A DNA stretch of 64,000 bases from assembly GCA_003567725.1 (NCBI GenBank), contig PWYU01000122.1, positions 44,201-108,200 of the forward strand, given 5' to 3'. The stretch is from Syntrophomonadaceae bacterium. GTDB lineage: Bacteria; Bacillota; Dethiobacteria; DTU022. The notes beneath the pieces are model-generated. The model saw only the letters and a list, made by a program, of their open reading frames with translations. It was not told the origin of the DNA and made no database searches. Position numbers and translations under genes: made by a program. Below, piece after piece: positions 463 to 45,906 of this stretch (position 1 is the first letter of the stretch; each line of letters starts with the position of its first letter).

Positions 463-534
463 AACGACTCAGTCTATATTCTTTGCTTAATGATAACCGT
501 CCCCTGTGGCTTAGCGGGCCAGGCCTGAGTAGTT
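463..534 (+). repeat. Mosaic intergenic repeat, copy 1 (degenerate module A + C + D) between ribD and ribE
   Basis: aacgactcagtctatattctttgcttaatgataaccgtcccctgtggcttagcgggccaggcctgagtagtt. Confidence 0.75.
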
Positions 535-611
535 ACTGAAATATTTAGTTAGCCCGGTGGCTATTTTATTTAGCTATACTTAAATTATACTAACTGTTTG
601 GCGGTGAATTA

Positions 612-1268
612 TTGTTTACAGGCCTGATCGAAGAAAAAGGGCATCTCAAAAAAATTAACCCCGGCTCTGAAGGAGCGGGACTGATTATCGGCGCCCGTAA
701 AGTTTTATCTGACATAAAAACAGGGGATAGCATTGCCGTTAGCGGGCCTTGCTTGACTGTGACCGCTATGGATAGAGATAGTTTTACGGCCTGGGCTATG
801 CCTGAAACCTTGAAACGTTCTAACCTGGGGTCATTACAAGTTGGACAGCCGGTAAACTTAGAGCGGGCCCTGGCTCTGGGAGATCGCCTGGGCGGTCATC
901 TGGTAAGCGGGCACGTTGATGCCGTAGTGACCCTGACCGGTCGCCGCGAGCAGGGTGGGGCCTATATTTTAAATTTCGATTTGCCCGATTTCCTGGCAAA
1001 ATATATTGTAGCCAAGGGTTCGGTAGCTCTTGATGGAGTCAGCTTGACGGTAATCGAAGTTGAAAAAAACCATTTTTCGGTGGGTTTGATTCCCATTACC
1101 GCTGCCGAGACCACTTTAGGCCAAAAAGAGACCGGTTCACCCATCAACCTCGAGGTTGACATGATCGGTAAATATGTAGAAAAAATGCTTACACCTCACC
1201 TGCATGGAGAAAGTGATAAGAAAGAAACCATTACCCTTTCTTTTTTGCAAGAGCAGGGGTATCTTTAG
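612..1268 (+). CDS. ribE: Riboflavin synthase alpha subunit
   Basis: 218 aa with an [11 protein letters not shown]-terminus and the duplicated lumazine-binding repeat. TTG start. Sits in the rib operon. Confidence 0.9.
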
Positions 1269-1290
1269 ATAGAGACAGGAGTGATGCACA

Positions 1291-2499
1291 TTGAACTTTA
1301 ACACCATTGAAGAAGCGATAAAAGATTTACAGGCTGGGCGGATGATCGTGGTCGTTGATGACGAAGACCGGGAAAATGAAGGCGATGTAATAATGGCTGC
1401 TTCGAAAGTGACTCCGGAAGCGATAAACTTCATGATCCGTTATGCCCGGGGACTGGTTTGCGCGCCTCTGACTGCCGAGCGGGTTGAAGAACTCGATCTT
1501 CCTCAAATGGTAAGCAGAAATACCGATCCACACTGTACGGCCTTTACCGTATCGGTGGATGCCGGTTCTTGCACCACCGGAATTTCGGCTTTTGAGCGGG
1601 CTGAGACCATCAAGGCCCTGATTGATCCAAAGACGGAACCGGCTGATCTGAAGCGGCCTGGTCACGTGTTCCCCCTGGAAGCGAAGGATGGAGGAGTTCT
1701 GCGCCGGGCTGGCCACACCGAAGCGGCTGTGGATTTATCGGTTCTGGCTGAACTGGGCCCGGCAGGGGTAATTTGTGAGATTATCAACGAAGACGGCAGT
1801 ATGGCCCGTCTGCCCCAGTTAACCGAGTTTTGCCGGGAGCATGAGCTGAAGATAATCAGCATTGCCGATTTGATCAACTACCGTATTAAGATCGAAAAAT
1901 TGGTCTGGCGTGCGGCTACGGCTGAACTGCCTACAGCGTATGGTAATTTCAAATTGATTACTTATGAGAATAGTATTGACCACCTTGCGCATGTAGCCCT
2001 GGTGATGGGTGATATCGATCCCGAGGAGCCTACTTTGGTCAGGGTTCACTCTGAATGCCTGACCGGAGATGTTTTTTCATCTTTGCGTTGTGACTGCGGT
2101 AATCAGATGGGACAGGCTATGAAAACAATTGCCGAAAAAGGCAAGGGGATTATAGTCTACATGCGCCAGGAGGGCCGCGGGATCGGCCTGATCAACAAGA
2201 TCCGGGCTTATGAACTGCAGGACAGGGGTAAGGATACCGTGGAGGCCAATGAAGAACTGGGTTTTGGCGCTGACCTGCGGGATTACGGAGTGGGAGCGCA
2301 GATCCTGGTCGATCTGGGGTTAAAAAACATCCTGCTTTTAACCAATAATCCTCGTAAAATCAAAGGCCTTGAAGGGTATGGGCTCAATATTGTCGAAAGA
2401 ATACCCCTGGAAATCGAACCCTGCCAGTATAACTGTAGTTACCTGAATACCAAGAAAACCAAGCTGGGCCACTTATTAAATATGTCTGCAGAGCAGTAG
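1291..2499 (+). CDS. ribBA: Bifunctional 3,4-dihydroxy-2-butanone-4-phosphate synthase / GTP cyclohydrolase II
   Basis: 402 aa. The N-terminal DHBP synthase region has the RENEGD motif and the C-terminal GTP cyclohydrolase II region has CxC…C. TTG start. Confidence 0.93.
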
Positions 2500-2524
2500 T
2501 TATTATTTTTTAGGAGGGAAAAAT

Positions 2525-2992
2525 TTGAAAACATACGAAGGCAAGCTGATTGCCCGTGATTACAAATTTGCTATTATCGTCAGCCGTTTCAATGAATTCA
2601 TTTCCGGCCGCCTCTTAGAGGGCGCTTTGGATTGCCTTAAACGGCATGAAGCAAATGAAGATGGGATTGAGATTATCTGGGTTCCCGGTTCTTTTGAGAT
2701 CCCGTTGGCTGCTTTGAAGGCAGCCAAAAGCGAGCGCTACGATGCCGTAATCTGCCTTGGCGCGGTCATCCGCGGATCAACTCCTCATTTTGACTACGTT
2801 GCTTCAGAAGTGACCAAAGGGGTAGCAAGTGTAGGCCTGGACACAGACACTCCAGTAATATTTGGAGTAATCACTACCGATAATCTGGAACAGGCTATTG
2901 AAAGAGCCGGCAGCAAGGCTGGCAATAAAGGCTGGCAGGCCGCCGCCTCGGCAATAGAAATGGCCGATTTAAGTACACAGCTTAACTTTTAA
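2525..2992 (+). CDS. ribH: 6,7-dimethyl-8-ribityllumazine synthase
   Basis: 155 aa. The typical RibH N-terminus (…[13 protein letters not shown]…) is present and this is the last gene of the rib operon. Confidence 0.93.
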
Positions 2993-3004
2993 GGAGCCGG
3001 TTCA

Positions 3005-5683
3005 TTGGTTGCTTTATCAAAAGAAAACTTTGTTATAATTGACGGAAACAGCCTGCTTTACAGGGCATTCTATGCCCTGCCGCTACTGCAAAACCGCCGC
3101 GGTGAACATACCAACGCGGTTTATGGTTTTACCAATATGCTGTTTAAGCTCATTGATGAAGAAAAACCTGATTATCTAACTGTAGCTTTCGATCCCCCCA
3201 AACCTACCTTTCGGTCCCGCATTGATGAATCATATAAAGCGCAGCGGGAAAAAGCCCCGCCGGAGCTGGGAGAACAGATCCTGCGGGCCCATCAGATCTT
3301 ACAAGCAATGGGTATCCCTGTTTATGAAATTGAAGATTTTGAAGCAGATGATGTAATCGGGACACTGGCTGACCGTGTTGCCGAAAAAGGTCATCAGGTT
3401 ACCGTTGTTTCCGGTGATGCCGACCTTCTGCAGGTGATTGGTGCAGGAGTAACGGTGTTGCTTACCAAAAAAGGGATTACCAAAATGGAACGTTACGATC
3501 AAAAGCGCCTTAAGGAAGATTACGGCCTGGAACCCTGGCAGGTTATCGACTATAAAGCGCTTAAAGGTGATTCTTCGGATAATATCCCCGGAGTGCCGGG
3601 GATTGGCGAAAAAACCGCCCGCCGTTTAATCGAAGACTACGAAAACCTGGAGAATATCTATCATAATATTGATAATTTGAAAAAGAAAACCGGAGCCAAT
3701 CTTTTGGAATACCGCGATCAACTTTATACCGGCCGGGAGCTGGTTACCCTGCGCCGCGATGTGCCGCTTGAAATAGACTGGCAGCAATGCCGTTACGGTG
3801 ATTTTGATTATGACAGCCTGCTGGCTCATTTTAATGAACTTGAGTTTAAAAATTTGGCCAACAAGTTAAGATCTTCTGCTTCTGATCAGAACATCGTCAC
3901 AACGAAAATAGACTCCAGTTACAGGGCAGAGCAGGTTGAAAGCCCGGAACAGCTAAAGGCAATCCTGGATAGCTTAAAAGCCGGCGCTGACCTGGCCTTG
4001 CTTTTTGAAAGAGAGGTTGGCAGGCCCGCCTGGCAGCAGCCTATCCGGCTGCTGGCCCTGGCTTTAAATGAAAGCAAAAGCTATTATCTTGAACCCGGGT
4101 CTTTCAAAGATCGGGAATCTGAAATCTGGGAAAGCCTGGCTGCCTGTGAAGAGAAAGATTTAAATATCCTGGTCCATAATCTCAAGCAGTATTACCATCT
4201 TTTTGCCGAAAAAGGTTTTAGCTTTCCAGAATGCGCCTTCGATACTGAGCTGGCCGCTTACTTAACTGATCCGGCCCGGGGAGGGTACGACCTGCCTGCA
4301 CTACTCCAGTTCTACCTGGGCCTTGAAATTGAAGCAGGAGGCGCTAAAAAAGAAGCCTTCCAGCTTGAGCGGCGCGGTCCCGAGCTGGCAGCCCGGGCTG
4401 GTTTACTCTTTAATTTGCGCGATCTTCTGCAGCAAGAGTTATCAGAGCAGGGTTTAGTAGATCTTCTTTACGATCTGGAAATGCCCCTGGCTGCAGTGCT
4501 GAGCCGCATGGAACGCCGGGGCATGACTGTTGATCTGGACTACCTGCGGGATCTCTCTGCTGAAATAGGCAGGCGTCTTGTCGAACTGGAAGAAAAAATA
4601 CACAGCCTGGCCGGTGAAGAGTTTAACCTTAATTCGCCACAACAGCTTTCATCGATATTATTTGATAAGCTTCAACTGCCTGCAATTCGCAAAACTAAAA
4701 CCGGCCGTTCTACAGATGCCAGGGTTCTTGAAGAACTGGCCTATCAGCATGAAATAGCGGCCTTGCTGCTGCATTATCGTCAATTGAGCAAACTGCAGGG
4801 TACTTATCTCTCCGGTTTGATCGACCTGGTCGATGAAGATGAAAAGAAGTTATATACTAACTTTAACCAGACCGTCACTGCTACCGGGCGCCTGAGCAGC
4901 AGCGATCCAAACCTGCAGAATATTCCCGTTCGCCTTGAAGAAGGCAGGCGGATTAGAAAGGCTTTTATCGCTTCGGGCCATCAAAAAACCCTCTTTGCTG
5001 CCGACTATTCACAGGTGGAGCTGCGGATCCTGGCCCACCTCTCCCAGGATCCAATTTTGATTGAAGCTTTTAAAACCGGGCAGGATATTCATCTGCGTAC
5101 TGCTTCTGAAGTAAACAATACCCCCCTGGAAGAAGTCACTCCTGTCATGCGAGAAAAAGCCAAGGCGGTCAATTTTGGAATAATTTACGGTTCAAGTGAC
5201 TACGGCCTGGCTCAAAACTTGAAAATCTCCCGCGCTGAAGCTAAATCCTATATGGACAGTTACTTTGAACGTTACAGCGGAGTAAAAAAATACATGGAAG
5301 AAATTATCGAACAGGCCCGAGAACTCGGTTATGTAACCACTATTTATAACCGCCGGCGTTACCTGCCCGAGATTCGCTCATCTAATTTTAATCAGCGCAG
5401 TTTTGCAGAGCGTATGGCTTTAAATACACCCATTCAGGGATCTGCAGCTGATATTATTAAAGTGGCCATGCTAAAAATTGACAGAATTATTAGCGAAGGC
5501 GGTTTTAAAGCCGCTATGCTGCTTCAAATTCACGATGAGCTGTTGTTTGAAATTGAAGAAGATGAATTGAACTTTTTTGCGCCCATGGTCCAGCGTGAAA
5601 TGGAGCAGGCTTATAACCTGTCGGTTCCCCTGAAAGTAGATTTAAAATGGGGCGCCAGCTGGGAAGAATTAAAACAGTATTAA
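3005..5683 (+). CDS. polA: DNA polymerase I
   Basis: 892 aa. The 5'-3' exonuclease N-terminus is present. Polymerase motif A (DYSQVELRILAHLS) and motif C (QIHDELLFE) are present. SD AAGGAG lies 8 nt upstream of the TTG start. Confidence 0.95.
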   Translation: MVALSKENFVIIDGNSLLYRAFYALPLLQNRRGEHTNAVYGFTNMLFKLIDEEKPDYLTVAFDPPKPTFRSRIDESYKAQREKAPPELGEQILRAHQILQAMGIPVYEIEDFEADDVIGTLADRVAEKGHQVTVVSGDADLLQVIGAGVTVLLTKKGITKMERYDQKRLKEDYGLEPWQVIDYKALKGDSSDNIPGVPGIGEKTARRLIEDYENLENIYHNIDNLKKKTGANLLEYRDQLYTGRELVTLRRDVPLEIDWQQCRYGDFDYDSLLAHFNELEFKNLANKLRSSASDQNIVTTKIDSSYRAEQVESPEQLKAILDSLKAGADLALLFEREVGRPAWQQPIRLLALALNESKSYYLEPGSFKDRESEIWESLAACEEKDLNILVHNLKQYYHLFAEKGFSFPECAFDTELAAYLTDPARGGYDLPALLQFYLGLEIEAGGAKKEAFQLERRGPELAARAGLLFNLRDLLQQELSEQGLVDLLYDLEMPLAAVLSRMERRGMTVDLDYLRDLSAEIGRRLVELEEKIHSLAGEEFNLNSPQQLSSILFDKLQLPAIRKTKTGRSTDARVLEELAYQHEIAALLLHYRQLSKLQGTYLSGLIDLVDEDEKKLYTNFNQTVTATGRLSSSDPNLQNIPVRLEEGRRIRKAFIASGHQKTLFAADYSQVELRILAHLSQDPILIEAFKTGQDIHLRTASEVNNTPLEEVTPVMREKAKAVNFGIIYGSSDYGLAQNLKISRAEAKSYMDSYFERYSGVKKYMEEIIEQARELGYVTTIYNRRRYLPEIRSSNFNQRSFAERMALNTPIQGSAADIIKVAMLKIDRIISEGGFKAAMLLQIHDELLFEIEEDELNFFAPMVQREMEQAYNLSVPLKVDLKWGASWEELKQY

Positions 5684-5697
5684 TATCAAATAGGACA

Positions 5698-5810
5698 GTG
5701 AAAAGTAAGCAGTCCGGCTGAGCCCGCGGGGAGGCTCAATTGTCACCGCAGCAAACTAAGGACCGGCAGGGAAGACAATGGAACCGCCCTTCTGACGTGG
5801 TGATTTTTAA
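5698..5810 (+). repeat. ~113-nt structured intergenic element, homologous to the element at 45788-45906 and related to the mosaic repeat family; ends in a U-run
   Basis: Shared blocks are gaaaagtaagc(a/c)g at the 5' end and g(g/a)gaagac(a/g)at(g/t)gaacc(g/t)cc…tttttaa(g/t)aag at the 3' end. It lies between polA and mutM. Confidence 0.5.
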
Positions 5811-5846
5811 GTAAACTATCCTCATTATGAACCAGGAGAAAGAGCT

Positions 5847-6668: not shown

Positions 6669-6706
6669 AGTGTCCCAATCAACTGGAGCAAAGGATCTGA
6701 TCAAGA

Positions 6707-7297
6707 ATGTTTATCATCGGCCTAACCGGAGGTATCGCTTCGGGTAAAAGCACGGTGGCTGCAATGCTTGTGGAAAAAGGAGCTTATCTTTTGGATGCTG
6801 ATCAGCTTGCCCGGGAAGCAGTTGAACCGGATCGTCCGGCTTGGCGGAATATTGTGCACTGGTTGGGTGAATCGATTCTCTTACCCGATGGTCATCTTGA
6901 CCGGGCCAGGTTGGCGGAAATTGTTTTTAATGATCGGCATAAACTAAAAAAGCTAAACCAGATTGTCCACCCCTGGGTCGGTAATCGCTTTATGGAACTA
7001 TCTGAAGAGATCAAGACAAAGGATCCTGATGCGGTTGTAGTTTACGACATTCCTCTGCTCATCGAAGCGGGCATGCAGGAAATGGTTGATTTGATCCTGC
7101 TTGTCTATGTTCCCCGTGAGGTTCAAATAGCGCGATTGCAAAAGCGTGACGGAATCAGTTGCAGCGCTGCAGAAGCCAGGCTTAAGGCCCAAAAACCCTT
7201 AGCAGAGAAAAAAAAGCAGGCCGACGTTATTATCGATAACAGCGGTTCTGAAGCTGAAACCGCCCGCCAGGTTGATCAATTCTGGTCCAAACTATAA
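6707..7297 (+). CDS. coaE: Dephospho-CoA kinase
   Basis: 196 aa with the P-loop GLTGGIASGKST. Sits in the conserved polA-mutM-coaE neighbourhood. Confidence 0.9.
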   Translation: MFIIGLTGGIASGKSTVAAMLVEKGAYLLDADQLAREAVEPDRPAWRNIVHWLGESILLPDGHLDRARLAEIVFNDRHKLKKLNQIVHPWVGNRFMELSEEIKTKDPDAVVVYDIPLLIEAGMQEMVDLILLVYVPREVQIARLQKRDGISCSAAEARLKAQKPLAEKKKQADVIIDNSGSEAETARQVDQFWSKL

Positions 7298-7308
7298 CCT
7301 GGGACACG

Positions 7309-7397
7309 GGGACAGGTCCCTTGTCCCAGATTATGTCCACCCGTTGCACGTTGGGACACGGGGACAGGTCCCTTGTCCCAGATTATGTGAACTCGAT
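7309..7397. repeat. Tandem duplicated 37-bp GC-rich nested palindrome (tgggacacggggacaggtcccttgtcccagattatgt, 2 copies, 52-bp period)
   Basis: Identical copies occupy 7309-7345 and 7361-7397. The outer stem is tgggaca/tgtccca and the inner stem is gggac/gtccc. They lie between the convergent coaE and ybaK-like genes. No U-tract follows, so it is not a canonical terminator. Confidence 0.8.
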
Positions 7398-7489
7398 ATG
7401 TGAAATACTGCAAAAATACTTTAAAATGGGGATGTTGGGATATTCTTCATTTTCGATAAAGTTGTTTTACAGTTATTTTGGTTGTTTGG

Positions 7490-7975
7490 TTACTTTTTCT
7501 CAAGATCCACAAACTTACCCCCGGTTACTTTCGGGAGCTGTTGAGGCGAGATGGGAAGCAAGGAATGGGGAGTGCCGGCTGAAGTATAAACTGTCTCAAA
7601 ACGCATCATGGATTGATCAAGAAAGATTGGGATGTTGTCATTGATGTCAAAAGGACAGACCCCACCAACTGGATAGCCGGTAAGCTCTTTAACTTCTTCT
7701 GGTTTGGCAATTTTAGTTTTTCCACCACCAAGCAATGTTTTAACTTTTTTGTCACTAATTTTAATATCGCCTGCAGCCACAAAAAGCCCGTATCTATTTC
7801 CACAGCGGAAAAGAATTGACTTGGCAATCTGTCCTAACTCTACGTTTAAGGTTTCAGCAGCTTCTGCTGAGGTTTTGGTTGTTTTTTCATGTTCTACTGG
7901 ATCCAAGCTTAAATCAAATTGATCCAGGTATTGTTTGGCTCTTTCCAGATTTTGATTGTTGCTCACTCTTATCAC
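7490..7975 (-). CDS. YbaK/ProX-type aminoacyl-tRNA deacylase domain protein (Cys-tRNA(Pro) deacylase-like)
   Basis: 161 aa. The translation (…LGQIAKSILFRCGNRYGLFVAAGDIKISDKKVKTLLGGGKTKIAKPEEVKELTGYPVGGVCPF…) fits the YbaK/EbsC fold. GTG start. The gene is flanked on both sides by GACAGG…CCTGTC palindromes. Confidence 0.72.
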   Translation of the reverse strand: MIRVSNNQNLERAKQYLDQFDLSLDPVEHEKTTKTSAEAAETLNVELGQIAKSILFRCGNRYGLFVAAGDIKISDKKVKTLLGGGKTKIAKPEEVKELTGYPVGGVCPFDINDNIPIFLDQSMMRFETVYTSAGTPHSLLPISPQQLPKVTGGKFVDLEKK

Positions 7976-8024
7976 TCCATCATTGTTTTGCTTATAAGCA
8001 GAACAAGCTGCTATTTCTGTTATT

Positions 8025-8043
8025 GGGACAGGGGACCTGTCCC
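8025..8043. repeat. GC-rich palindrome gggacagg-gga-cctgtccc (third copy of the GACAGG/CCTGTC element)
   Basis: Perfect 8-bp stem immediately upstream of the ybaK-like gene. It is the same motif family as 7309-7397. Confidence 0.7.
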
Positions 8044-8227
8044 TGTGTTCCGGTTTACCTTATTCTTTTTCGCTTTATTTTCTTTAAAACCTTTTTTAAT
8101 TGGCTTTTTACTGATCCTCTAAGCCTTTTAAAGAGCGGTAATAAATGATAGATTAATTTGGTTACATTATCTTGACGTCCAAACTATAAACCCTTATAAT
8201 CTTAAAGGAACAAAGAAGTAATAATTA

Positions 8228-8312
8228 GTCGGGATGGCGGAATTGGCAGACGCGCACGGTTGAGGGCCGTGTGGTTAACACCATGGGGGTTCAAGTCCCC
8301 CTCCCGACACCA
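8228..8312 (+). tRNA. tRNA-Leu (anticodon GAG), with encoded CCA
   Basis: The gtcggga/tcccgac acceptor stem is present. The anticodon stem cacgg/ccgtg carries the loop ttGAGgg. There is a long variable arm (class II) and a T-arm ggttcaagtcc. The sequence ends in CCA. Confidence 0.85.
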
Positions 8313-8323
8313 CTTAAAATGCA

Positions 8324-8352
8324 ACGTGGAGTCTAATCTTCACGTTTTTTTA
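8324..8352 (+). terminator. Rho-independent terminator after tRNA-Leu
   Basis: Hairpin acgtgga-gtctaatc-ttcacgt followed by TTTTTTT. Confidence 0.7.
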
Positions 8353-8392
8353 TTGATCCTCTTGATTTTTCTTGGTTAAAAAGAACAAAAAA

Positions 8393-8420: not shown

Positions 8421-8503
8421 AAAAATCATGGAGCTTTACTTTAATCATCTACTGTATATTTGAAAAGCCTTTTGATAGAAGGTGGAGAAAGTAAAAAGGA
8501 GTT

Positions 8504-10024: not shown

Positions 10025-10186
10025 TCCAATAGATGGCCTTACATCCTAAAAAGATAAGTTCTTTTACTTTAATTAACCAGTGATCCTGATAACGAATATG
10101 GCAAACTTATTGGCTCTTCAAGTTTGTTTAACTCTATTCTGTTGGGTACTTTAGATTATTAAAAATAGTTATGTAAGGCCATTTGT

Positions 10187-10237
10187 AACTACTCAGGCTT
10201 AGCTTATCATTCAACAAGGGCAATAGGCTGAGTAGTT
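10187..10237 (-). repeat. Mosaic intergenic repeat, copy 2 (modules A+D only, inverted orientation)
   Basis: aactactcaggct-tagc-ttatcattcaacaagggcaataggctgagtagtt is the reverse complement of the 18464 copy, minus the central module. Confidence 0.75.
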
Positions 10238-10284
10238 ACGGCCATTTTAACTAATTCATTTTGTGTAAAGAATGAGGCAGTCCG

Positions 10285-13458: not shown

Positions 13459-14649
13459 TTATTGCAAGTCATTAACAAAAGCTTCGAGGCGATCAAGACC
13501 TTTAATAATATTATCCATTGATGTGGCAAAAGATAAACGGACATAATTAGGCGCTCCGAACCCGCTGCCCGGCACAATCGCCACTTTTCTGCTTTCCAGT
13601 AACTGGCCGGCAAAATCATCACAGCCTTCTAAGGTTTTACCCTGGAAAGATTTACCTATAACGCCGGATAAGTCAACGAATAGATAGAAGGTGCCCCTGG
13701 GCGTGAGTGCATCCAAACCCGGTATATTTTTTATCCGTTCACACATATATTTTCTGCGTTCATCAAACGCAACCAGCATTTCACCGACACATTTTTGACT
13801 TTCATCTAAAGCAGCCAGGGTTGCTTTTTGGGCTATTGAATTAGGATTTGATGCGGTATGGCTTTGGATAGCAGCCATTACTTTGGCGATTTCAGCAGTT
13901 GAAGCAGTATAACCAATCCGCCAACCGGTCATGGCATAACTTTTAGAAACACCGTTGACTACGATGGTCAGTTCTTTTATTTTTTCATTGAAGGAAGCGA
14001 TGCTATAATGGATCGCTTCATCGTAAAGCAGTTTTTCATATATTTCATCTGATACGACATAGATGTTATGTTCGCAGCAAACATCACAAATCGCTTTTAA
14101 TTCATCTTTGCTGTATACCTGCCCGGTAGGGTTGCTGGGACTGTTTAGAAGCAGTGCTTTGGTTTTTGCGCTTAAAGCATTTTTTAAATCACCTGCTGTA
14201 ACCTTTAAATTATTATCTTTACTGGCCTTGACAATGACTGGAATGCCGTCGTTTAACTTGACCAGTTCCGGATAACTAACCCAGTAAGGGGCTGGAATTA
14301 ATACTTCATCCCCAGGGTTTAAAAGGGCGGCCAGGCTATTAAAAAGTGAATGCTTGGCCCCGTTACTGACCACAATCTGGCTGGGATCATATTCTAAAGC
14401 GTTGTCAGTTTTAAGCTTGCGGCATATGGCTTGCTTTAGCTCTAAAGTTCCCGCAGCCGGGGTATAGCGAGTATGACCCTCATTAATGGCTTTGATAGCC
14501 GCTTCTTGAATATGTGAAGGGGTATCGAAATCGGGCTCACCGGCTCCAAAACCGATAACATCAAGACCCTGGCTGATCATTTCTTTTGCTTTTGCATCGA
14601 TAAGCATGGTTGGAGAAGGGCTAACACCCATTCCTTTCTTCGACAACAT
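13459..14649 (-). CDS. aspB: Aspartate aminotransferase (class I PLP-dependent aminotransferase)
   Basis: 396 aa with NPTG and the SKSYAMTGWRIGY PLP-lysine region. Confidence 0.88.
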   Translation of the reverse strand: MLSKKGMGVSPSPTMLIDAKAKEMISQGLDVIGFGAGEPDFDTPSHIQEAAIKAINEGHTRYTPAAGTLELKQAICRKLKTDNALEYDPSQIVVSNGAKHSLFNSLAALLNPGDEVLIPAPYWVSYPELVKLNDGIPVIVKASKDNNLKVTAGDLKNALSAKTKALLLNSPSNPTGQVYSKDELKAICDVCCEHNIYVVSDEIYEKLLYDEAIHYSIASFNEKIKELTIVVNGVSKSYAMTGWRIGYTASTAEIAKVMAAIQSHTASNPNSIAQKATLAALDESQKCVGEMLVAFDERRKYMCERIKNIPGLDALTPRGTFYLFVDLSGVIGKSFQGKTLEGCDDFAGQLLESRKVAIVPGSGFGAPNYVRLSFATSMDNIIKGLDRLEAFVNDLQ

Positions 14650-14753
14650 TAATTTTTCACTCCTTTTACAGCTATAATTTATTATTTTATCACGAAATAA
14701 GCCGGGATAGTTGGTTTGATGATAAAAAAGAAAGGGTCTTTATTACTAACTGC

Positions 14754-15758
14754 TCAATTCCCGGAGGATAACTTCTTTTGTACATATGCAGGAGGGATCC
14801 AGAGCAGATCATTGTCTATAAGCTGTTCTGGATTAACCGGTCTGCCATTAAGATTTACCTCCCAGTGCAAATGGGGGCCGGTGGCATAACCGGTCATTCC
14901 TAAAGTTCCTATAATCTCTTCCTGTTTAACAGCCTGGCCTTCACTAATTTTAATAGAATCCAGATGCATATAGGTGCTTGATAGACCAAGGCCGTGATCG
15001 ATAATCACGGTTTTTCCTCCTGAGAGGAGATCATCAGCCAACCTTACAATGCCGCTGTTCGGAGCACTGATGGGAGTGCCTGTTTCTTCAGCGATATCAA
15101 TCCCGGCATGCCGCCGCGGGGGGTTGTTGTTGATCACCCTGATAGCTCCGTATTCTGAGGTAACCCTTCCCTCAAGAGGTTGAATAAAAACATCTGTCCA
15201 CAGGGGGTAAGATTTGCTATTAGAACGGGCCTGCCTGACCTTTTCCCGGTCTTCAGCGAGACGTTCAGCCGTCCATCCTGCAGTTACCCGGGCAGGCATA
15301 GAGAACCTGGCCGTTTGAAATGTTTTTTCAGAAAGGTTAACGGTTGTTTCAAGGGTTCTGTTAGGGTTTTCTTGATCCTGGACTTGGATTCTCAGATCAT
15401 AACTGCCGGGGTCTGTTTCATAACTGACTCCGATTATAGTGTAAAGCAAATTACCAACCCGGTATAATTCAGAAACTGCTCCAGGGAAGTCAAAATCAAT
15501 ATTGATCTCAGCTTGCCCGCTAATTGGACTTGCCTCGAGTATCAGGAAATCGCCCGGTTTGGGATTTGCAGGATATATGATGATTTTCTCTTCTGCAGAG
15601 GGTTCATAGATCGAGATATATAAGGGAGGGGTTTCAGGTGAATAGTCAGATGCTGTAAATATCTTTTCAGGACCGTCCTGGATTAAGATCAGAGCGCTGG
15701 TAACCATAAAACAAGCGATAACCAGAAAGAAAAAACTCTGTCCTTCTTTAAATATCAT
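14754..15758 (-). CDS. M23 family metallopeptidase (LytM-like), secreted or membrane-anchored
   Basis: 334 aa with an N-terminal hydrophobic signal. The M23 catalytic motifs HAGIDIA and HLHWEV are present. Confidence 0.85.
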   Translation of the reverse strand: MIFKEGQSFFFLVIACFMVTSALILIQDGPEKIFTASDYSPETPPLYISIYEPSAEEKIIIYPANPKPGDFLILEASPISGQAEINIDFDFPGAVSELYRVGNLLYTIIGVSYETDPGSYDLRIQVQDQENPNRTLETTVNLSEKTFQTARFSMPARVTAGWTAERLAEDREKVRQARSNSKSYPLWTDVFIQPLEGRVTSEYGAIRVINNNPPRRHAGIDIAEETGTPISAPNSGIVRLADDLLSGGKTVIIDHGLGLSSTYMHLDSIKISEGQAVKQEEIIGTLGMTGYATGPHLHWEVNLNGRPVNPEQLIDNDLLWIPPAYVQKKLSSGN

Positions 15759-16040
15759 ACTAACCTCCGCGGTGATTTGACAGTGATGATCATAAACTAA
15801 TTTACCATAAAAAGCAGGAGAGGGGCACCCTTTGTAGAAAAGTTATTTATTCACAGATTACAGTTGGGTTTAACAATACGGCTTTTTAAAGAGTATGAGA
15901 AGAATTTGATTTACTAAAGCCAGTCAAAAAGAAGAGCTTAAATAACTATTCTAAAAGTGCGATTTACCATTTTCACCCATCTGATGGTAAGGGTAAGGGT
16001 TCATGGGGGTCTACTCTGCCTTTTGTCTTTGTTAAATGAC

Positions 16041-16150
16041 AACAGGCGCCACGGGGACGTTTCGAACGTCCCTTAAAACTTAGCTTTAAGGCCGAAGTAA
16101 AGATGATGGAATCGTTATCTGTGGCTTAGCGGCTAGGCTTGATTAGTTAT
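16041..16150 (+). repeat. Mosaic intergenic repeat, copy 3 (modules B-like, SD/ATG module, C/D-like)
   Basis: ggcgccacggggacg…cttaaggccgaag…gatgatggaatcg…ctgtggcttagcggctaggcttgattagtt. Confidence 0.65.
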
Positions 16151-16221
16151 GATCTTAAAAACTTATTAGTTCTTTGAAAGCTGTTTTAGCTTGCTTGCAG
16201 AAAACTGTTTTGGAGGTGCAC

Positions 16222-18240: not shown

Positions 18241-18463
18241 ATTCTTTACCTCCAGGTAAATAGTGATTAGAAGGGCCGAATAACACAGCTGCATTGGCGC
18301 TTTTTCCGGCCGCATTACAAGTATTCTCCTTACCAGTTTATTTTCCCTGCCATTGATAACCGCTATTTAAAAGATCAGCAGGTTAATTAAACCTGTGTTA
18401 ATCTTCCCTTAGACGATTCTCCAAACCGAAACTCGTTTTATTTGTTCTCAAGTAACTACTCAG

Positions 18464-18525
18464 CCTATTGCCCTTGTTGAATGATAACCGTCCCCTGTGG
18501 CTTAGCGGGCTAGACCTGAGTATTT
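18464..18525 (+). repeat. Mosaic intergenic repeat, copy 4 (modules A-C-D, full length)
   Basis: aactactcagcctattgcccttgttgaatgataaccgtcccctgtggcttagcgggctagacctgagtat. The termini are inverted-complementary. Confidence 0.8.
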
Positions 18526-18664
18526 ACGTTTTCAAGAATTTTCGAGCATAGACTTCTCAAAAACCGTACCCTTAAATAGCCGGTTCAGGTTGACTTTTCA
18601 GCTATTTTAGCCAGTTGCCAGGAAAGAAGGGGACTGATAAAATGAAGTGAAAGGATGGTGAACG

Positions 18665-20548
18665 GTGATAAAAGAACTTGAGGCAGCGCGAAAACAATAT
18701 CCCGATAAATTTGCTGATATGGATGATATTTTTTGCAAGGTCAGTCCGGGGGATCGTATTTATATTGCAACCGCCTGCGGCGAACCGCAGTACCTGGTGC
18801 ATAATTTCCTTGAATACGTGGAAGCAAATCCCAAGGCTTTTTTTGATACGGAAATCCTTCACGTCTGGACTTTGGGGGTTTCCCCTTATACTGATGAAAG
18901 GTTAAAAAATACTTTCCGGTCCAATTCTTTTTTTATCAGTCACAATATTCGCCAGGCAGTTAATGAAGGTCTGGCTGATTACACGCCCCTATTTTTAGCC
19001 GATATTCCTGCCTTGTTTCGCCGTCGCCAGGTAAAGGTCGATGTGGCTTTGGTTCAGGTCTCTGTGCCGGATGAACATGGTTATTGCAGCCTAGGGGTTA
19101 GCCTTGACATAACGAGAGCGGCAGTGGAAAACGCTGATCTGGTTATCGCCCAGGTTAATTCGCATATGCCCCGGGTGCACGGGGACACATTTATCCATCT
19201 TTCTAACTTTGATTATATTGTTCCGCATGATGAACCGCTCTTGGAATATAACCCCCCGCCGCCGGATAAAGAAATTGTTGAAGCTATCGGCAATTACGCC
19301 GCTCAAATTGTAGAAGATGGCGATACAATACAGGTTGGTTACGGATCCCTGCCTGACGCTATTTTATCTTGCTTTGGCGATAAACGCCATCTCGGTGTCC
19401 ATACCGAACTATTAAAAAATGGCCTGATAGATCTTGTCAAAAAGGGCGTAATCGATAATAGCATGAAAAGTAGCGATCGCGGCAAAGTGGTGGCCTCTTT
19501 CTGCATGGGAACTAAAGAAACCTATGCCTTTATTCATGATAACCCGCTTATTAAATTTAAAGAGATTGATTATACTAACAACCCTATGGTCATCGGCGGA
19601 CATGAGCATATGACGGCTATTAATACCGGTCTGGAAATTGATTTGAGCGGACAGGCCACGACTGAATCGATCGGCGATACGTTCTATAGCGGGATAGGTG
19701 GTTTGGCCAGTTTTATGCGCGGTTCTGCCATGGCGCCATATGGTAAAAATATTTTGGTCCTGCAGTCTACCTCCCGTGACGGAAAGTATTCAAGGATTGT
19801 GCCTGCATTGCAAGAGGGTGCAGGAGTAACCCTGACGCGAGGAGACCTATATTATGTAGTAACAGAGTATGGAATTGCCTTTTTGCATGGCAAAAATATC
19901 AGAGAAAGAGCGATGGCTTTAATTGCTATTGCCCATCCGAAATTTCGGCCCTGGTTGATAGAAGAAGCGAAGAAGAGGAAACTGATCTATAAAGACCAGG
20001 CCTTCATGCCGGGTGAAAAGGGTGAATATCCGGCTCATTTAGAGGCTTACCGGACTACCAAGCGTAATGTCCGGATATTCATGCGTCCGGTAAAAATCAG
20101 CGATGAAACTCTTATTAAGGATTTCTTTTACTCATTATCCGATAAAAGTATTTACCAGCGTTTTCTAACCGTCAGACGTCAGCTATCCCGTGAAGAGCTG
20201 CAAAAGCGGTTTGTTGTAATCGATTATACCCGTGAAATGGTTATCCTGGCTGTGAAAAGATATCTAGGCCAGGAAGTGATTACCGGTATCACCCAGTACT
20301 GCATGGGTGAAAATGACCTTTCAGCCGAGATTTCCATCGTGGTCCGTGACGATTTTCAAAGCAAAGGCATTGGATTTGAACTGCTTTCCTACTTGGTCAG
20401 GGTGGCAAAAAACCAGGGTTTGCATACCTTTACTGCCGATATCCTGCCCGATAATATTGCTGTTTTCAAGCTAATTGAAAAGCAAGGCCTGGAATTTGAC
20501 CGTAAATGGGATGGCGGCTTGATCCATATAAAGATTTATTTGAAATAA
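18665..20548 (+). CDS. Bifunctional acetyl-CoA hydrolase/transferase-family (4-hydroxybutyrate CoA-transferase-like) / GNAT acyltransferase fusion
   Basis: 627 aa. The first ~430 aa resemble CoA-transferase family I. The C-terminal ~190 aa form a GNAT fold (…ISIVVRDDFQSKGIGFELL…). GTG start with SD AAGGATGGTGA. Confidence 0.8.
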   Translation: MIKELEAARKQYPDKFADMDDIFCKVSPGDRIYIATACGEPQYLVHNFLEYVEANPKAFFDTEILHVWTLGVSPYTDERLKNTFRSNSFFISHNIRQAVNEGLADYTPLFLADIPALFRRRQVKVDVALVQVSVPDEHGYCSLGVSLDITRAAVENADLVIAQVNSHMPRVHGDTFIHLSNFDYIVPHDEPLLEYNPPPPDKEIVEAIGNYAAQIVEDGDTIQVGYGSLPDAILSCFGDKRHLGVHTELLKNGLIDLVKKGVIDNSMKSSDRGKVVASFCMGTKETYAFIHDNPLIKFKEIDYTNNPMVIGGHEHMTAINTGLEIDLSGQATTESIGDTFYSGIGGLASFMRGSAMAPYGKNILVLQSTSRDGKYSRIVPALQEGAGVTLTRGDLYYVVTEYGIAFLHGKNIRERAMALIAIAHPKFRPWLIEEAKKRKLIYKDQAFMPGEKGEYPAHLEAYRTTKRNVRIFMRPVKISDETLIKDFFYSLSDKSIYQRFLTVRRQLSREELQKRFVVIDYTREMVILAVKRYLGQEVITGITQYCMGENDLSAEISIVVRDDFQSKGIGFELLSYLVRVAKNQGLHTFTADILPDNIAVFKLIEKQGLEFDRKWDGGLIHIKIYLK

Positions 20549-20549
20549 G

Positions 20550-20598
20550 GGCTTAAGGCCGAAGGGAAGATGGTGGAACGGTCCCCTGTGGCTTACGG
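20550..20598 (+). repeat. Mosaic intergenic repeat, copy 5 (SD/ATG module + C module)
   Basis: gcttaaggccgaagggaagatggtggaacggtcccctgtggcttacgg. It sits between the CoA-transferase/GNAT gene and the FemAB-like gene and supplies an in-frame alternative start at 20570. Confidence 0.75.
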
Positions 20599-20608
20599 AG
20601 AATTTACT

Positions 20609-21592
20609 ATGGCTTTTGAACTTAAAGCAGAAACTATTTCTACTTTACAACAATATTATAAAAAAGAGGAGCTCGATCTGAACTGGCCCCATGTTTTTGT
20701 TCTGCCTGTCTGGCTGCAATCCTGGTGGGAAGCCTTTGGGCAGGAATATCGCTTATGGCTGCGCTCTATCTGGCAAGAGGGAGCCTTAATTGGCCTTGCT
20801 CCCTTGATGGTTAAAGGAGGGGAAGCACGCCTCATTGGCAGCGCCGATGTTTGTGATTACCTCGATTTCATCACCATTCCCGGCAGGGAAAAAGCTTTTT
20901 TCCAGGCTCTTGTACCAGCTTTGCAAAAAGCAGGTTTCAAAAACTTAATTTTAGAAGCTCAGCGCCCTGAAGCGGTTTTTTTTAAGGCTCTGGCAGAGAT
21001 TGAACATCACTCTTCTATACCGGCTAAAATTGATTTTATCCGGGAAAATGAAGCCTTTGAAGTTGCCCTCCCTCACACCTGGGAAGATTACCTGGCCCTG
21101 TTAAGCAAAAAACAACGTCACGAAGTAAAACGTAAACTTCGCCGCCTGGACAGGGAAGCACCGCATTACGGTTACCAGGTAATAGCAGAATCAGAAGAGG
21201 TGCAGAAATTTGTTCCCACATTTTTAACCCTTTTACAGGAACACCCGGATAAGGCCGAGTTTTTAACCCCGCAAATGGAACATTATTTCAAAGGCTTGAT
21301 CGATAATATGTCCCAGGCAGGCCTGGCCCGGTTCGGCCTGTTTAAAATTGATGGATTTAATGCCGCCGCTGTGCTGTACTTTGATTATGGGGGGCGGATC
21401 TATCTTTTCAACAGCGGCTACATTACCCGGTACCGACCCCTGAGCGCTGGTCTTATTTCCAAGCTGCTATTAATAAATGAGGCCATTTCCCAGGGTCGGC
21501 AGGTATACGACTTTTTAAAGGGGCGGGAAGTATATAAAAGCCGCCTGGGGGGAACGGGTATTCCTATTTTCAAAGTTGAACTTCAATTTTAA
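20609..21592 (+). CDS. GNAT-fold FemAB/BioF2-like (PF13480-type) acyl- or aminoacyl-transferase
   Basis: ~327 aa from MAFELKA. The C-terminal signature …YDFLKGREVYKSRLGG is typical of CelD/FemAB-related GNATs. The track start at 20570 lies inside the repeat copy, so I prefer the ATG at 20609. Confidence 0.68.
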   Translation: MAFELKAETISTLQQYYKKEELDLNWPHVFVLPVWLQSWWEAFGQEYRLWLRSIWQEGALIGLAPLMVKGGEARLIGSADVCDYLDFITIPGREKAFFQALVPALQKAGFKNLILEAQRPEAVFFKALAEIEHHSSIPAKIDFIRENEAFEVALPHTWEDYLALLSKKQRHEVKRKLRRLDREAPHYGYQVIAESEEVQKFVPTFLTLLQEHPDKAEFLTPQMEHYFKGLIDNMSQAGLARFGLFKIDGFNAAAVLYFDYGGRIYLFNSGYITRYRPLSAGLISKLLLINEAISQGRQVYDFLKGREVYKSRLGGTGIPIFKVELQF

Positions 21593-39076: not shown

Positions 39077-39089
39077 AATTGGGCCTCCT

Positions 39090-40028: not shown

Positions 40029-40083
40029 CTGTACACCCCTTACAGCATTTCTATACCAGCGACCGAGCTGCCGGCCGGCTAAT

Positions 40084-41094: not shown

Positions 41095-41175
41095 TAATTC
41101 ACCACCCTAAGATGCACTTGGTAATGGCTTGCTGCAAGCAATAAAGCTTGCAGCAAGCTTCAAGTTCAACGATTC

Positions 41176-42786: not shown

Positions 42787-43132
42787 CAGAATTCCCCTCC
42801 TTAAAATTAAATCCCCCAAATTCCTCCTACCCTGCCAGAGATAAACGTTTAATCACCTCCCCCTGGAAGTTCAGCAGTTTTTAAGCATCATAAAAGCGGC
42901 CATGACAATCAACAAGCTTTGATGATTAGATTGTTGGATCAACCCGGTAAGTGATAGTAACATGTAATTACCAGATGATGCCTTAAAAAAGCTGATTAGA
43001 AATAAAACCTAATTAGCTGCATTAATTAGAATTTTAAAATGTTCTCATACCTGTATCATACCATTGTTAATAAATTATTCTTCCTTAATTGAAATATTCC
43101 TCCTTGTCTAATAAAATTTTATAAAAAAAATT

Positions 43133-43885
43133 TTAACTAACTACTTCGCGGCTGATATTAAACTTGTAACGATCTCCACGATAGTAGGCATGGCGCAATT
43201 CAATGGGGTTTTCTTCGCGGGTATTAATTATAGAAGTAACTTTGAAAAGGGCGCTACCAGTTGCCAGCTGCATAATTTTAGACTGATCATGGTTAGCGAC
43301 TGCAGCTTCAAATGTTTGCCTGGCTACTCCCAGTTCAATTTTTTTATGCTCTCTAAAATAGCGGGTAAAAGAAAACCATCCTTGTTTTGCTTCGAAATCA
43401 TAGATCAGGGAAAGGGCTTCTTTACCTATTTCTACAGGCATGTAATAATAAAACAAAACTAATGGAGTATTGTTGGCAATGCCCAGGAGCTTAAAGCTGG
43501 CAATGTCGGCCCCCAGGGGAAGATTAAGCAAAGCGGTAATGTGAACATCAGCGGTGGTGAGTTGTGCTTCCAGGACTTTCATCGAAGGGGTCAAGCCACG
43601 TCCCAGGACAGTTTCTTCAAATCCGGTCAGGCTAATCAAACCTTGATTAATTTTTTGCTCTGCTACAAAAGTGCCTTTACCTTGAATGCGGTAGAGCAAG
43701 CCTTCACTTACTGCCAGGCTAATCCCCTGCCTTACAGTGGTGCGGCTTAAATTATACTTTTCGCAAAGTTCACGCTCAGAAGGTATTTTATCATGGGGAG
43801 ATAGTTTCTGCTCTTTGATTTCCTGAGTAAGCAGTTCTTTTAATTGAACATACAGGCTTACTGGAGAATGGTTGGTTATTTCCAC
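43133..43885 (-). CDS. GntR family transcriptional regulator (HutC/UTRA subfamily)
   Basis: 250 aa with an N-terminal wHTH (…SERELCEKYNLSRTTVRQGI…) and a UTRA effector domain. GTG start with SD AAGGAG. Confidence 0.85.
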   Translation of the reverse strand: MEITNHSPVSLYVQLKELLTQEIKEQKLSPHDKIPSERELCEKYNLSRTTVRQGISLAVSEGLLYRIQGKGTFVAEQKINQGLISLTGFEETVLGRGLTPSMKVLEAQLTTADVHITALLNLPLGADIASFKLLGIANNTPLVLFYYYMPVEIGKEALSLIYDFEAKQGWFSFTRYFREHKKIELGVARQTFEAAVANHDQSKIMQLATGSALFKVTSIINTREENPIELRHAYYRGDRYKFNISREVVS

Positions 43886-44205
43886 AGGCGTTCTCCTTTA
43901 TGAATTGGCCTACAATAGCGTAAACTAAACAGGGAAGAACTATGAACAATAAAAAAAACCATAACAATTATGTGATATTTCATTCCGCTTATCCTGATTC
44001 GATTAATTCGACAAATATATTAATACTCCTTTCGGTCGAGGCTGGGTTTTTTCTAAAAGTTGCGGTTAGGAGTTATTTTTGCTAATCTTTTATAACATCA
44101 TATATATTTGGAAATAACAGCTGAACGCGGGTAAAAAATATTATAATCAGGAGCAGAAAATGACTTTTTTTACAAACGGCAAAGATTACTGCAGGGGCAA
44201 TTCGG

Positions 44206-45303
44206 TTGATTGAGATTGCCCCCGTACTGACGGCATGTTTAATGCTCGCCCTCGGGGTGGGCGGGGCGCTGGTCTTTAGTGTGCTAAAGATGCCGGCTCC
44301 GTATATTATCGGACCGATGGTGGCACTCAGTTTAGGCAACATTCTTGAACTGCCTCTTCCCATGCTGCCCGGCTGGTTTGAAAGTATCGCCCAGATTATT
44401 CTAGGTTTTTATTTAGGCATCGGGATAACCAGAAAGAACCTGAAGCAATTAAAATCCGCTTCTTTTCCTGCTGCGGTAATTGCTGTTTGGTCATTGTTTA
44501 TCACATTTGCCCTCGGCTTCTTCCTCTACCGCACCACTCAGTTCAGCCTGGCCACCGCGGTTTTAAGCTCCAGTCCCGGCGGGGCTCCTGAAGTCAGCAT
44601 TGTAGCTGTGGCGATTAATGCGGATGTGGCCACGGTGACCATAATGCAGATGGCCAGGTTGCTGGCCATACTTATGCTGGCCCCCTTGTTAAGCTACGTC
44701 ATGCGCTCCCATAGGAAATCTGTATCGCCTGCTTGCTTTTATGATCACTTTAATCCGGAGGCTGCGGAAGAAACTTCCTCCACTCCCTTTTCCGGCAACC
44801 GGGTTCGAACTTTTTTCAGGCGGCTTTTAAACCCCGGCCTGGCTATCGCTGCAGCCGGCGGCCTTGCCTTTCACCATATCGGTATACCGGCAGGTTATTT
44901 GATCGGAGCCATGGTAGCGGTCGGGGCGGTTTCTCTTTATGGTTTAAAAATAAACCTGCCGCCGGAACAGCTCAGGTCAGGATCCTATATCGGTATCGGC
45001 CTTTTGATCGGACAATTTTTTACCCGGGAAGCCTTTATTGGGATTATAGAGATCTATCCGGTTGTATTGTTATTAACTGCGCTGATGCTTTTATCATGCG
45101 CCGCGCTTGGTCTGGTTATTTCAAAAATTACGGGCTGGCAGTTGAGCGTTTGCCTGCTGGCCACAGCGCCCGGCGGTTTGATCACCATGATTGCTTTGGC
45201 TGCTGAGATGGATGCAGATCCTTTTGTTGTCAGCCTGATGCATCTGTCCCGCCTGATCACGGTCAAACTAACCCTACCCCTGGTAATTCTAATCATTTCA
45301 TAA
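44206..45303 (+). CDS. AbrB-family (AmoA-like duplicated) integral membrane protein
   Basis: 365 aa, highly hydrophobic, with internal duplication typical of the AbrB duplication family. Confidence 0.65.
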   Translation: MIEIAPVLTACLMLALGVGGALVFSVLKMPAPYIIGPMVALSLGNILELPLPMLPGWFESIAQIILGFYLGIGITRKNLKQLKSASFPAAVIAVWSLFITFALGFFLYRTTQFSLATAVLSSSPGGAPEVSIVAVAINADVATVTIMQMARLLAILMLAPLLSYVMRSHRKSVSPACFYDHFNPEAAEETSSTPFSGNRVRTFFRRLLNPGLAIAAAGGLAFHHIGIPAGYLIGAMVAVGAVSLYGLKINLPPEQLRSGSYIGIGLLIGQFFTREAFIGIIEIYPVVLLLTALMLLSCAALGLVISKITGWQLSVCLLATAPGGLITMIALAAEMDADPFVVSLMHLSRLITVKLTLPLVILIIS

Positions 45304-45568
45304 TAAAATTAACCCTGGGCTTAAGCAGTGATCTATGGGGTTACAATTGTTTTCCTTATATGTGTAACAATGATCTTGTGAATGATTAATTAAATTAATG
45401 AAACTCGATATGGAATTGATGTTTTTTTGTTAAAATTTTTAGAATAACAGTTGCCAGATATTATCACCGGTGAATGCTTCATCAAAACATCATTTTATGA
45501 TCGACTTACCTGATTATCTCTGTATTGAGTTTAAAGGGCATAGTAAAAATTTTTTTGCTCTACTTTTT

Positions 45569-45643
45569 AACTGCTCAGCCTATTGCCCCTGTTGAATAAT
45601 AAGCGGCGCCATGGAGACGGTGGAACCGTCCCCTGTGGCTTTT
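45569..45643 (+). repeat. Mosaic intergenic repeat, copy 6 (modules A-B-C)
   Basis: aactgctcagcctattgcccctgttgaataataagcggcgccatggagacggtggaaccgtcccctgtggctttt. Confidence 0.78.
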
Positions 45644-45787
45644 AACTTCCTCAAAGAATAGCCGTGAAACTGATTGCGGTTCTTAACCTGCCGTTATTAT
45701 ACAGTGTGTATAGTTATGAGGCCATATTTTTGTATCCACCTGCTATGGTGTTAGCTATTTAAATCTGTTATAAATACAAGTACTATA

Positions 45788-45906
45788 GCGAAAAGTAAGC
45801 CGTGAAGCAGTGCCTGCGCACAAAATTAGATTTGATTATCACCCTGGAAAAGCGCAAGTTCGTCAGAGAAGACGATTGAACCTCCTCCCGGCATGGCGTT
45901 TTTTAA
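45788..45906 (+). repeat. ~118-nt structured element homologous to 5698-5810, ending in a U-run
   Basis: It shares 5' gaaaagtaagc and a 3' gagaagacgattgaacctcc…gcgttttttaataag block with the polA-mutM element. It lies in the 940-bp intergenic region upstream of kamA. Confidence 0.5.

Follow-up and report, generated by a model that had tools for sequence, protein, structure and literature searches.

Intergenic repeats in the 64-kb window

The DNA analysed here, hereafter the window, is a 64,000-nt stretch of contig PWYU01000122.1 from a Syntrophomonadaceae bacterium (assembly GCA_003567725.1, positions 44,201 to 108,200). Its intergenic spacers carry short repeats that an initial annotation had described as a modular family with inverted termini and a Shine-Dalgarno (SD)-ATG module. 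We re-examined these repeats, which are read below as very probable miniature inverted-repeat transposable elements (MITEs). Six copies belong to one family, termed family A (c1 to c6), and two longer relatives (X1 and X2) to a sister family, family B.

Copy c1 (461-536, plus strand) lies in the ribD-C/ribE spacer and measures 76 nt, consisting of the left arm, the last 17 nt of the core and the right arm. It is bordered by a perfect 8/8 target-site duplication (TSD), with TGAAATAT at both 453-460 and 537-544. The same 76-nt deletion form recurs as c2 (18452-18527, plus strand) between the genes for transaldolase (minus strand) and an acetyl-CoA hydrolase/GNAT protein (plus strand), where the TSD matches at 7/8 positions (GTTCTCAA/GTTTTCAA, 18444-18451 and 18528-18535). 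The minimal form is c3 (10185-10239, minus strand), a 55-nt copy made up of the two arms only, which is situated in the spacer of two convergent genes and again has a perfect 8/8 TSD (GGCCATTT at 10177-10184 and 10240-10247). The sole near full-length family-A copy in the window is c4 (16008-16150, plus strand; 143 nt, type I), between an M23 peptidase gene (minus strand) and an MscS gene (plus strand); its termini and core are decayed, and its flanks show no recognisable TSD. In the right-truncated copy c5 (45567-45641, plus strand), the left arm is followed by a core with an internal deletion between the GAGACGG repeats, and the copy ends at ...CCCCTGTGGCTT without a right arm and without a TSD. 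Finally, c6 (20552-20595, plus strand) is a 44-nt armless remnant of the 3' half of the core (model positions 79-127). It occupies most of the 60-nt spacer that runs from a stop codon at 20548 to 20609, where the next gene probably starts.

Repeat finding grouped c1 and c2 (76 nt, 86% identical) and joined c4, c5 and c6 to the same families, and it showed that 10204-10239 in c3 and 18452-18487 in c2 are 100% complementary over 36 nt. A profile hidden Markov model built from full-length copies of other genomes plus c4 recovered the other five copies in the 64-kb window at E values of about 1e-11 to 2e-6 (c5 9.5e-12, c6 6.9e-11, c1 3.4e-8, c2 9.1e-8 and c3 1.6e-6). The profile gave no further window match at E < 1, and module searches with mismatches yielded zero additional window copies. 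The repeat family is therefore real, and all six family-A sites of the initial annotation exist, with small corrections to their coordinates; for c4, the start had been placed at 16041, which misses the degenerate left arm and moves to 16008. Every window copy is intergenic, as had been claimed: none lies inside an open reading frame (ORF), and the flanking ORFs have clear Pfam identities. The flanking sequence is unrelated from copy to copy.

Anatomy, target duplications and termini of the element

The window copies are mostly derivatives, being either 55- and 76-nt internal-deletion forms or truncated, with c4 as a decayed full copy. In related genomes, most copies have the full length of about 141-164 nt, for which L001 serves as an example (GTAACTACACAGCATATTGTCCTTGTTGAATGATAAGCGGCGCCATGGGGACGGTTCGAACGTCCCTTAAAGCGTAGCTTTAAGGCCGAAGGGGGGAGACGGTGGAACCGTCCCCTGTGGCTTAGCGGGATATGCCTGAGTAGTTAC; loci fetched from other DNA carry L numbers). 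The terminal inverted repeat (TIR) of family A comprises 13-14 bp (GTAACTACTCAGCC), and the TIR pair GTAACTACTCAG(CC) / (GG)CTGAGTAGTTAC matches at 12/12 positions in c3 and with 0-1 mismatches in c1 and c2. The interior forms one long, imperfect palindrome, and three variants (types I, II and III) differ solely in the apical 25-45 nt. The proposed modules A, B, SD, C and D follow one another along this single element. The descriptions of A, B, C and D were correct, D being the reverse complement of the start of A, and A and D correspond to the TIRs. The different module subsets of different copies had been likened to BOX or RUP elements, which is fair as an analogy; they arise mostly because one palindromic element of about 145 nt has been internally deleted or truncated. 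The 76-nt form of c1 and c2 is also present in L028 and L002, and since the TSDs of c1 and c2 differ, this form itself has transposed. No ORF of at least 20 codons spans any of the elements of 55-164 nt.

TSDs also accompany copies in other genomes, with 8/8 matches in L017 (CTTCTTTT) and L014 (TAATGTTT) and 7/8 matches in L021, L046, L028 and L030. When boundaries were set by a fixed rule in nine copies, the flanks agreed on average at 6.3/8 positions compared with 2.1/8 for mismatched left/right pairs, and a match of at least 6/8 was reached by 8/9 copies versus 0% of the mismatched pairs. The duplicated 8-mer differs from copy to copy, and the insertion flanks are 69% A+T.

The 8-bp TSD and the ends starting with GTAA suggested the IS66 family, of which we take these two features to be typical. 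ISDge4 from Deinococcus geothermalis, an insertion sequence (IS) of the ISBst12 group within the IS66 family with a single transposase of 449 amino acids (aa), has the TIRs GTGACTACTCAGCA / GTAACTGCTCAGCA and the 8-bp direct repeat CCTCGATG (PMC12898284). The plasmid pHTA426 of Geobacillus kaustophilus is likewise listed with one ISBst12-group IS (PMC8024623). In the plasmid record (L061), this IS spans 14107-15741, has the ends GTATCTATTCAGCC / GTAACTATTCAGCC and is bordered by the TSD GACGAGTT on both sides; its 485-aa protein contains the domains PF03050 (DDE_Tnp_IS66, 1.9e-64) and zf-IS66. The family-A terminus GTAACTACTCAGCC is identical to the pHTA426 end GTAACTATTCAGCC at 13/14 positions and to each ISDge4 end at 12/14 positions, while the terminus of the L028 copy is exactly GTAACTATTCAGCC. 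ISBst12-group ISs thus have in common with family A the termini starting with 5'-GTAA and the 8-bp target duplication. In contrast, they are about 1.6 kb long and encode a DDE_Tnp_IS66 protein of 449-485 aa, whereas family A measures 55-164 nt and is without a transposase gene. There is zero similarity between family A and the pHTA426 IS past the 14 terminal bases. A match to a known IS terminal repeat, which the initial annotation had listed among the outcomes that would count against it, is therefore what was found, and it explains the elements.

Six independent family-A copies are truncated at the same base, after ...CCCCTGTGGCTT(A), at the 3' edge of the inner palindrome. These are c5 (45567-45641) and the copies at L006 2737-2861, L008 457-581, L029 264-386, L045 109-227 and L051 8027-8152. 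In right-truncated copies the TSD is absent except in L045, where 7/8 positions match at offset 1. The motif AGCGG borders the core on both sides, and the common breakpoint points either to a deletion hotspot or to an end that belongs to the core itself.

Relatives in other genomes, sister family B and the hairpin

The exact 18-mer AACCGTCCCCTGTGGCTT occurs at 13 genome loci, all of them in soda-lake metagenome-assembled genomes (MAGs) named 'Syntrophomonadaceae bacterium', and at 34 metagenome loci, mostly from the same soda lakes; the number of seven more scattered genome matches is compatible with chance. With families A and B taken together, about 45 distinct copies were found beyond the window in soda-lake Syntrophomonadaceae/Dethiobacteria MAGs and metagenomes, spread over 13 genome loci and about 30 metagenome loci. 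The MAGs with copies include PUKV01, PWSG01, SKZS01, SLHT01, SLIX01, CAYWIY01 and CAYYWR01. More distant homologues of one window protein carry the name Dethiobacteria, and a look-up of the exact MutM protein of the window gave no record. The copies in L026 and L031 lie at different loci and differ by about 1 nt per 100, a near-identity that points to recent spread. Two pattern scans of viral contigs returned chance coding matches only. The family is thus not confined to one region, as the initial annotation had cautioned it might be, since dozens of copies occupy unrelated contexts in other genomes.

Outside the soda-lake lineage, the 18-mer forms an arm of a long perfect hairpin (AAGCCCACAGGGGACGGTTCTCTCCGG...CCGGAGAGAACCGTCCCCTGTGGCTTTTT) at L003 5113-5190 (Butyrivibrio sp. 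FCS014) and at L043 1699-1744, with extra bases common to both. These two matches probably represent a chance resemblance to a terminator-like hairpin.

Syntenic contigs were obtained via homologues of the acetyl-CoA hydrolase/GNAT protein and of RibE. A Joint Genome Institute (JGI) contig (L065, SL_9KL_010_SED), which comes from the sediment of a Kulunda soda lake, matches window positions 1-1311, c1 included, with 99.8% identity. The c1 site lacks a copy in L066 and L067 (83% RibE identity) and in L068 (77%), with spacers of 115 and 71 nt versus 231 nt in the window. No copy is present at the c2 site in L055 (89% aa identity), L056 (86%) and L060 (95%), at the c4 site in L055 and L056, where the orthologous spacers are shorter, or at the c6 site in L055, L056, L058 and L060. 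L056 has a copy of its own at 2285-2375 in an oxidoreductase/aminotransferase spacer whose length is 22 nt in the window versus 26 nt in L055. At L020 1180-1327, in another MAG, a family-A MITE was observed 11 nt upstream of an ORF called as a homologue of the window's lysine-2,3-aminomutase gene; its orientation is opposite to that of c5, which indicates an independent insertion near the same gene.

The two longer relatives listed in the initial annotation are not members of family A, since the family-A profile gave E = 1.6 for one and no match for the other; they are degenerate copies of family B. X1 (5691-5823, boundaries approximate, plus strand) fills most of the polA-mutM spacer. Its left end TAGGACAGTGAAA is similar to the family-B TIR TACTACAGCGAAA and its right end GTAAACTATCCTC to the complement of that TIR; a stretch of 33 nt is similar to the family-A core (score 27 versus 15 +/- 2 for shuffles). 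X2 (45781-45928, plus strand) lies upstream of the lysine-2,3-aminomutase gene; it starts with TACTATAGCGAAA, which agrees with the family-B terminus TACTACAGCGAAA at 12/13 bases, and ends with CTTCGCTTTAGGG. X1 and X2 are related to each other (local score 33 versus 14 +/- 2 for shuffles), and with family A they have only part of the inner core in common.

Family B is intact at three loci in related MAG contigs, namely L006 1319-1483 (TIR TACTACAGCGAAA / TTTCGCTGTAGTA, TSD CTAA), L011 550-737 (TSD TTAA) and L010 about 1760-1930 (TSD ATAA), the last two with partial tandem duplications of core segments. A comparison of L006 1319-1483 with L017 3061-3224 showed that the inner core is nearly the same in families A and B, while the outer 20-25 nt and the TSD length (4 bp in family B) differ.

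Whatever their type (I, II or III), full-length copies form one long hairpin of -62 to -69 kcal/mol (z = -4.6 to -5.8), in agreement with the claim that full copies form a long hairpin, and the c3 hairpin reaches -19 kcal/mol (z = -5.0). The folds of c1 and c6 are no better than those of shuffles. Pairing and covariation were analysed by RNAalifold and pair counting in 15 full-length copies retrieved via the exact stem 18-mer. In the long-range helices, 84% of cells are paired versus 31-46% with slid partners, a difference biased by this retrieval. Covariation, for which retrieval via the stem 18-mer makes a weak test, was not above shuffles (72/500 and 225/500 reach the observed values), and the RNAalifold covariation term was unfavourable. 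Rfam gave no match on the copies at the gathering threshold, nor at E <= 5 over the whole window, and at E <= 10 two full-length copies produced far-below-threshold chance matches only, chiefly to microRNA (miRNA)-precursor hairpins. Consensus scans inside the copies detected neither a promoter nor a terminator. The proposed roles as a terminator element or small RNA are therefore not borne out. A tRNA-like origin was also considered, the GGTTCGAA loop being T-arm-like, but was rejected, as ARAGORN gives only the tRNA-Leu at 8228.

With respect to the flanking genes, the copies show a sense bias of 28:8 (binomial p = 0.0012, with crude ORF calls), which becomes 12:5 and not significant where both flanks are known. 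The sense fold is more stable than the antisense fold in 13/15 full-length copies, with a mean difference of about 5 kcal/mol over the 19 copies tested (Wilcoxon p = 0.005, kinship ignored). In many sense copies, the distance from the end of the copy to a downstream start codon is 25-80 nt.

The SD-ATG module had been listed as a feature of the family, but it is not conserved: c4 and c6 are the only copies with an ATG at its position. The corresponding sequence is gACGGTGG in c5 and in the majority of full-length relatives, whereas L004 and the type-III copies have ACGATGG, located one codon later. It had also been suggested that c6 supplies an alternative in-frame start at 20570. Orthologues of the gene following c6 measure 327-328 aa and begin with MAxEL, MAFDL or MSFEL, which fits the start at 20609 instead, and this start has its own GGAG eight nt upstream (about 20597-20600). 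Similarly, the MscS orthologues of 367-369 aa place the MscS gene start near 16221, about 70 nt past c4. The module is therefore no functional trait of the family but a lineage-specific accident.

Two further observations concern gene starts next to copies. The GGAG preceding the gene after c6 occupies the position of GCGGGC in the element consensus, and this ribosome-binding site may derive from the MITE remnant. The second concerns window 18665-18719: the closest homologues of the acetyl-CoA hydrolase/GNAT fusion next to c2 measure 609 aa versus 627 aa for the longest ORF, and the true start probably lies 18 codons downstream, near 18719.

The window contains other palindromes as well. The repeat TGGGACACGGGGACAGGTCCCTTGTCCCAGATTATGT is found at 7295-7395 and 8024-8057, twice in tandem with a 52-nt period and once inverted; its copies flank an ORF with a tRNA_edit domain (7490-7975, minus strand) just upstream of the tRNA-Leu gene (8228-8312). 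It has CACGGGGAC(N)GGT in common with the MITE core and was not detected by the family-A profile. A near-perfect palindrome (GCTTGCTGCAAGC ... GCTTGCAGCAAGC) lies at 41116-41166 between two minus-strand genes, and in Rfam it gave only a spurious miRNA-precursor match, below threshold, on both strands.

Origin of the repeats and comparison with known elements

Taken together, the TIRs, the 8-bp TSDs, the dispersal and the presence or absence of copies among syntenic relatives give good support to the view that the repeats are mobile. They very probably constitute a previously undescribed MITE family, that is, non-coding and non-autonomous DNA transposons with ISBst12-type ends of the IS66 family. 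An ISBst12-type DDE transposase encoded elsewhere in the genome would bind both element ends and insert the element into AT-rich intergenic DNA via an 8-bp staggered cut, the repair of which would leave the direct duplications that are seen. The palindromic interior can form a single hairpin in single-stranded DNA or in RNA, and deletions within the palindrome have given rise to the 55-nt, 76-nt and truncated derivatives. As the copies lie in 5' untranslated regions and intercistronic spacers, mostly in sense orientation, they are probably co-transcribed as stable stem-loops; any effect of the element on mRNA stability or translation is hypothetical.

Several points weigh against this interpretation. 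The pHTA426 transposase, used as a tblastn query, detected no IS66/ISBst12-type transposase in the window or in the 64 fetched loci (about 0.5 Mb), no TIR pair at IS-like spacing (300-4000 bp) was present in the window and the fetched related DNA, and no parent IS was found among the recurrent large ORFs across loci. With no partner transposase in the DNA searched, mobilisation in trans is something we infer. The initial annotation had recommended a search for target duplications and empty sites; 8-bp TSDs and syntenic relatives without copies were indeed found, but the orthologous spacers are diverged, so that the empty sites are not clean, and no allele with a single copy of the TSD sequence was seen. 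Furthermore, a plain MITE model does not predict the sense bias of 28:8, the inner core common to two families with different ends and TSD lengths, or the six independent truncations at one base.

The first two of these features are also what an RNA-based explanation would draw on. The inner palindrome could be a functional RNA module, for instance a small RNA or a stem-loop involved in mRNA stabilisation or processing, which is under selection at the RNA level and merely spread by transposon ends. The co-orientation with flanking genes, the more stable sense fold in 13/15 full-length copies, the position of many sense copies 25-80 nt before a start codon, the hairpin kept by three different apical sequences and the recurrence of one core in two MITE families that differ in termini and TSD length would all suit such a module. 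However, Rfam has no match even at E <= 5-10, covariation does not exceed that of shuffles (72/500 and 225/500), the copies contain neither a promoter nor a terminator consensus, and the diverged copies c4, L040 and L027 decay without compensation. The strand-asymmetry test is pseudo-replicated because the copies are related by descent, and the orientation bias could follow replication direction or suffer from crude ORF calls. We therefore consider a functional RNA module unlikely. A broader version, to which we give a small chance, is that the inner palindrome of about 100 nt (AAGCGGYGCCAYGGGGACGG ... CCGTCCCCTGTGGCTTAGCGG) is a functional strand-specific module, either an RNA stem-loop with an effect on mRNA stability, processing or translation or a protein-binding site, captured and spread by two transposition systems. 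One of these may use ISBst12-type ends with 8-bp TSDs and the other TACTACAGCGAAA ends with 4-bp NTAA TSDs. If true, such a module would explain the 28:8 sense bias, the more stable sense fold and the breakpoint at the core edge.

Other origins fit the observations far less well. REP/BIME-like palindromes moved by a Y1 (RAYT, IS200-like) transposase instead of a DDE enzyme would also be palindromic, intergenic and orientation-biased, and a Y1_Tnp ORF (PF01797, 5.8e-11, 253 aa) does occur at L053 2021-2782 (minus strand), with a truncated copy about 1.5 kb away (518-552) and a full copy at a distance of about 5 kb (7955-8095). Nevertheless, this ORF is not flanked by copies, the elements are 3-4x as long as a REP, Y1 transposition leaves no target duplication whereas most intact copies have 8-bp TSDs, and the family-A termini match those of an IS66-family DDE element, making a Y1 mechanism very improbable. 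Equally doubtful is the idea that the elements are mobile translation-start or leader-peptide cassettes providing the mini-ORF M-E-P-S-P-V-A-stop or alternative starts through the SD-ATG module. It could appeal to AAGGCCGAAG...ATG in c4 and c6 and to the c6 ATG at 20570 being in frame with the downstream gene, but most copies elsewhere read gACGGTGG without an ATG there, the 327-328-aa orthologues match the start at 20609, and the candidate start is buried in the strongest hairpin stem. Finally, the copies might be taken for remnants of local segmental duplication or recombination, since six of them lie within 45 kb. Against this, the sequences around the copies are unrelated, every copy has a TSD of its own, and dozens of copies lie in unrelated contexts in other genomes, which leaves this origin next to no probability.

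As far as the searched literature shows, family A is the first MITE family to be connected with the ISBst12 branch of single-ORF IS66-family elements, a branch that is little studied and whose active transposition was reported only in 2026. The presence of one core in two families with different ends and TSD lengths represents a case of terminal-module exchange. In practical terms, these MITEs mark and fragment the intergenic regions of an uncultured haloalkaliphilic lineage and are convenient markers of strain-level variation. They can break MAG assemblies, as seen from the many copies at contig ends, and create false alternative start codons, as at 20570. The family is otherwise ordinary in kind, and knowledge of how such elements work is unchanged.

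Long-hairpin MITEs of bacteria include the Correia/NEMIS elements of Neisseria, ERIC/IRU of enterobacteria, RUP of Streptococcus pneumoniae and bcr1 of the Bacillus cereus group. Like family A, they are small, non-coding, intergenic and multi-copy, possess TIRs and TSDs and occur in size classes due to internal deletion, and their stem-loops are co-transcribed with neighbouring genes. The termini and TSDs of these elements are unlike those of family A; in Correia and RUP the duplicated target is TA, and both are related to other IS families. None of Correia, ERIC, RUP and bcr1 is known to have sequence similarity to family A, and they also differ in that here one core is found under two sets of termini with different TSD lengths. 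The BOX elements of Streptococcus pneumoniae (boxA-boxB-boxC) likewise occur as copies with different module subsets; however, their modules are reshuffled or repeated units without a TIR/TSD signature, whereas the subsets seen here result from deletion or truncation of an IS-ended palindromic element. REP/BIME sequences with their RAYT share with the present family the intergenic palindromes and the orientation bias, but REPs are about 35 nt long, lack TSDs and are moved by Y1 enzymes, whereas the elements described here measure 55-164 nt and carry 8-bp TSDs and IS66-type ends.

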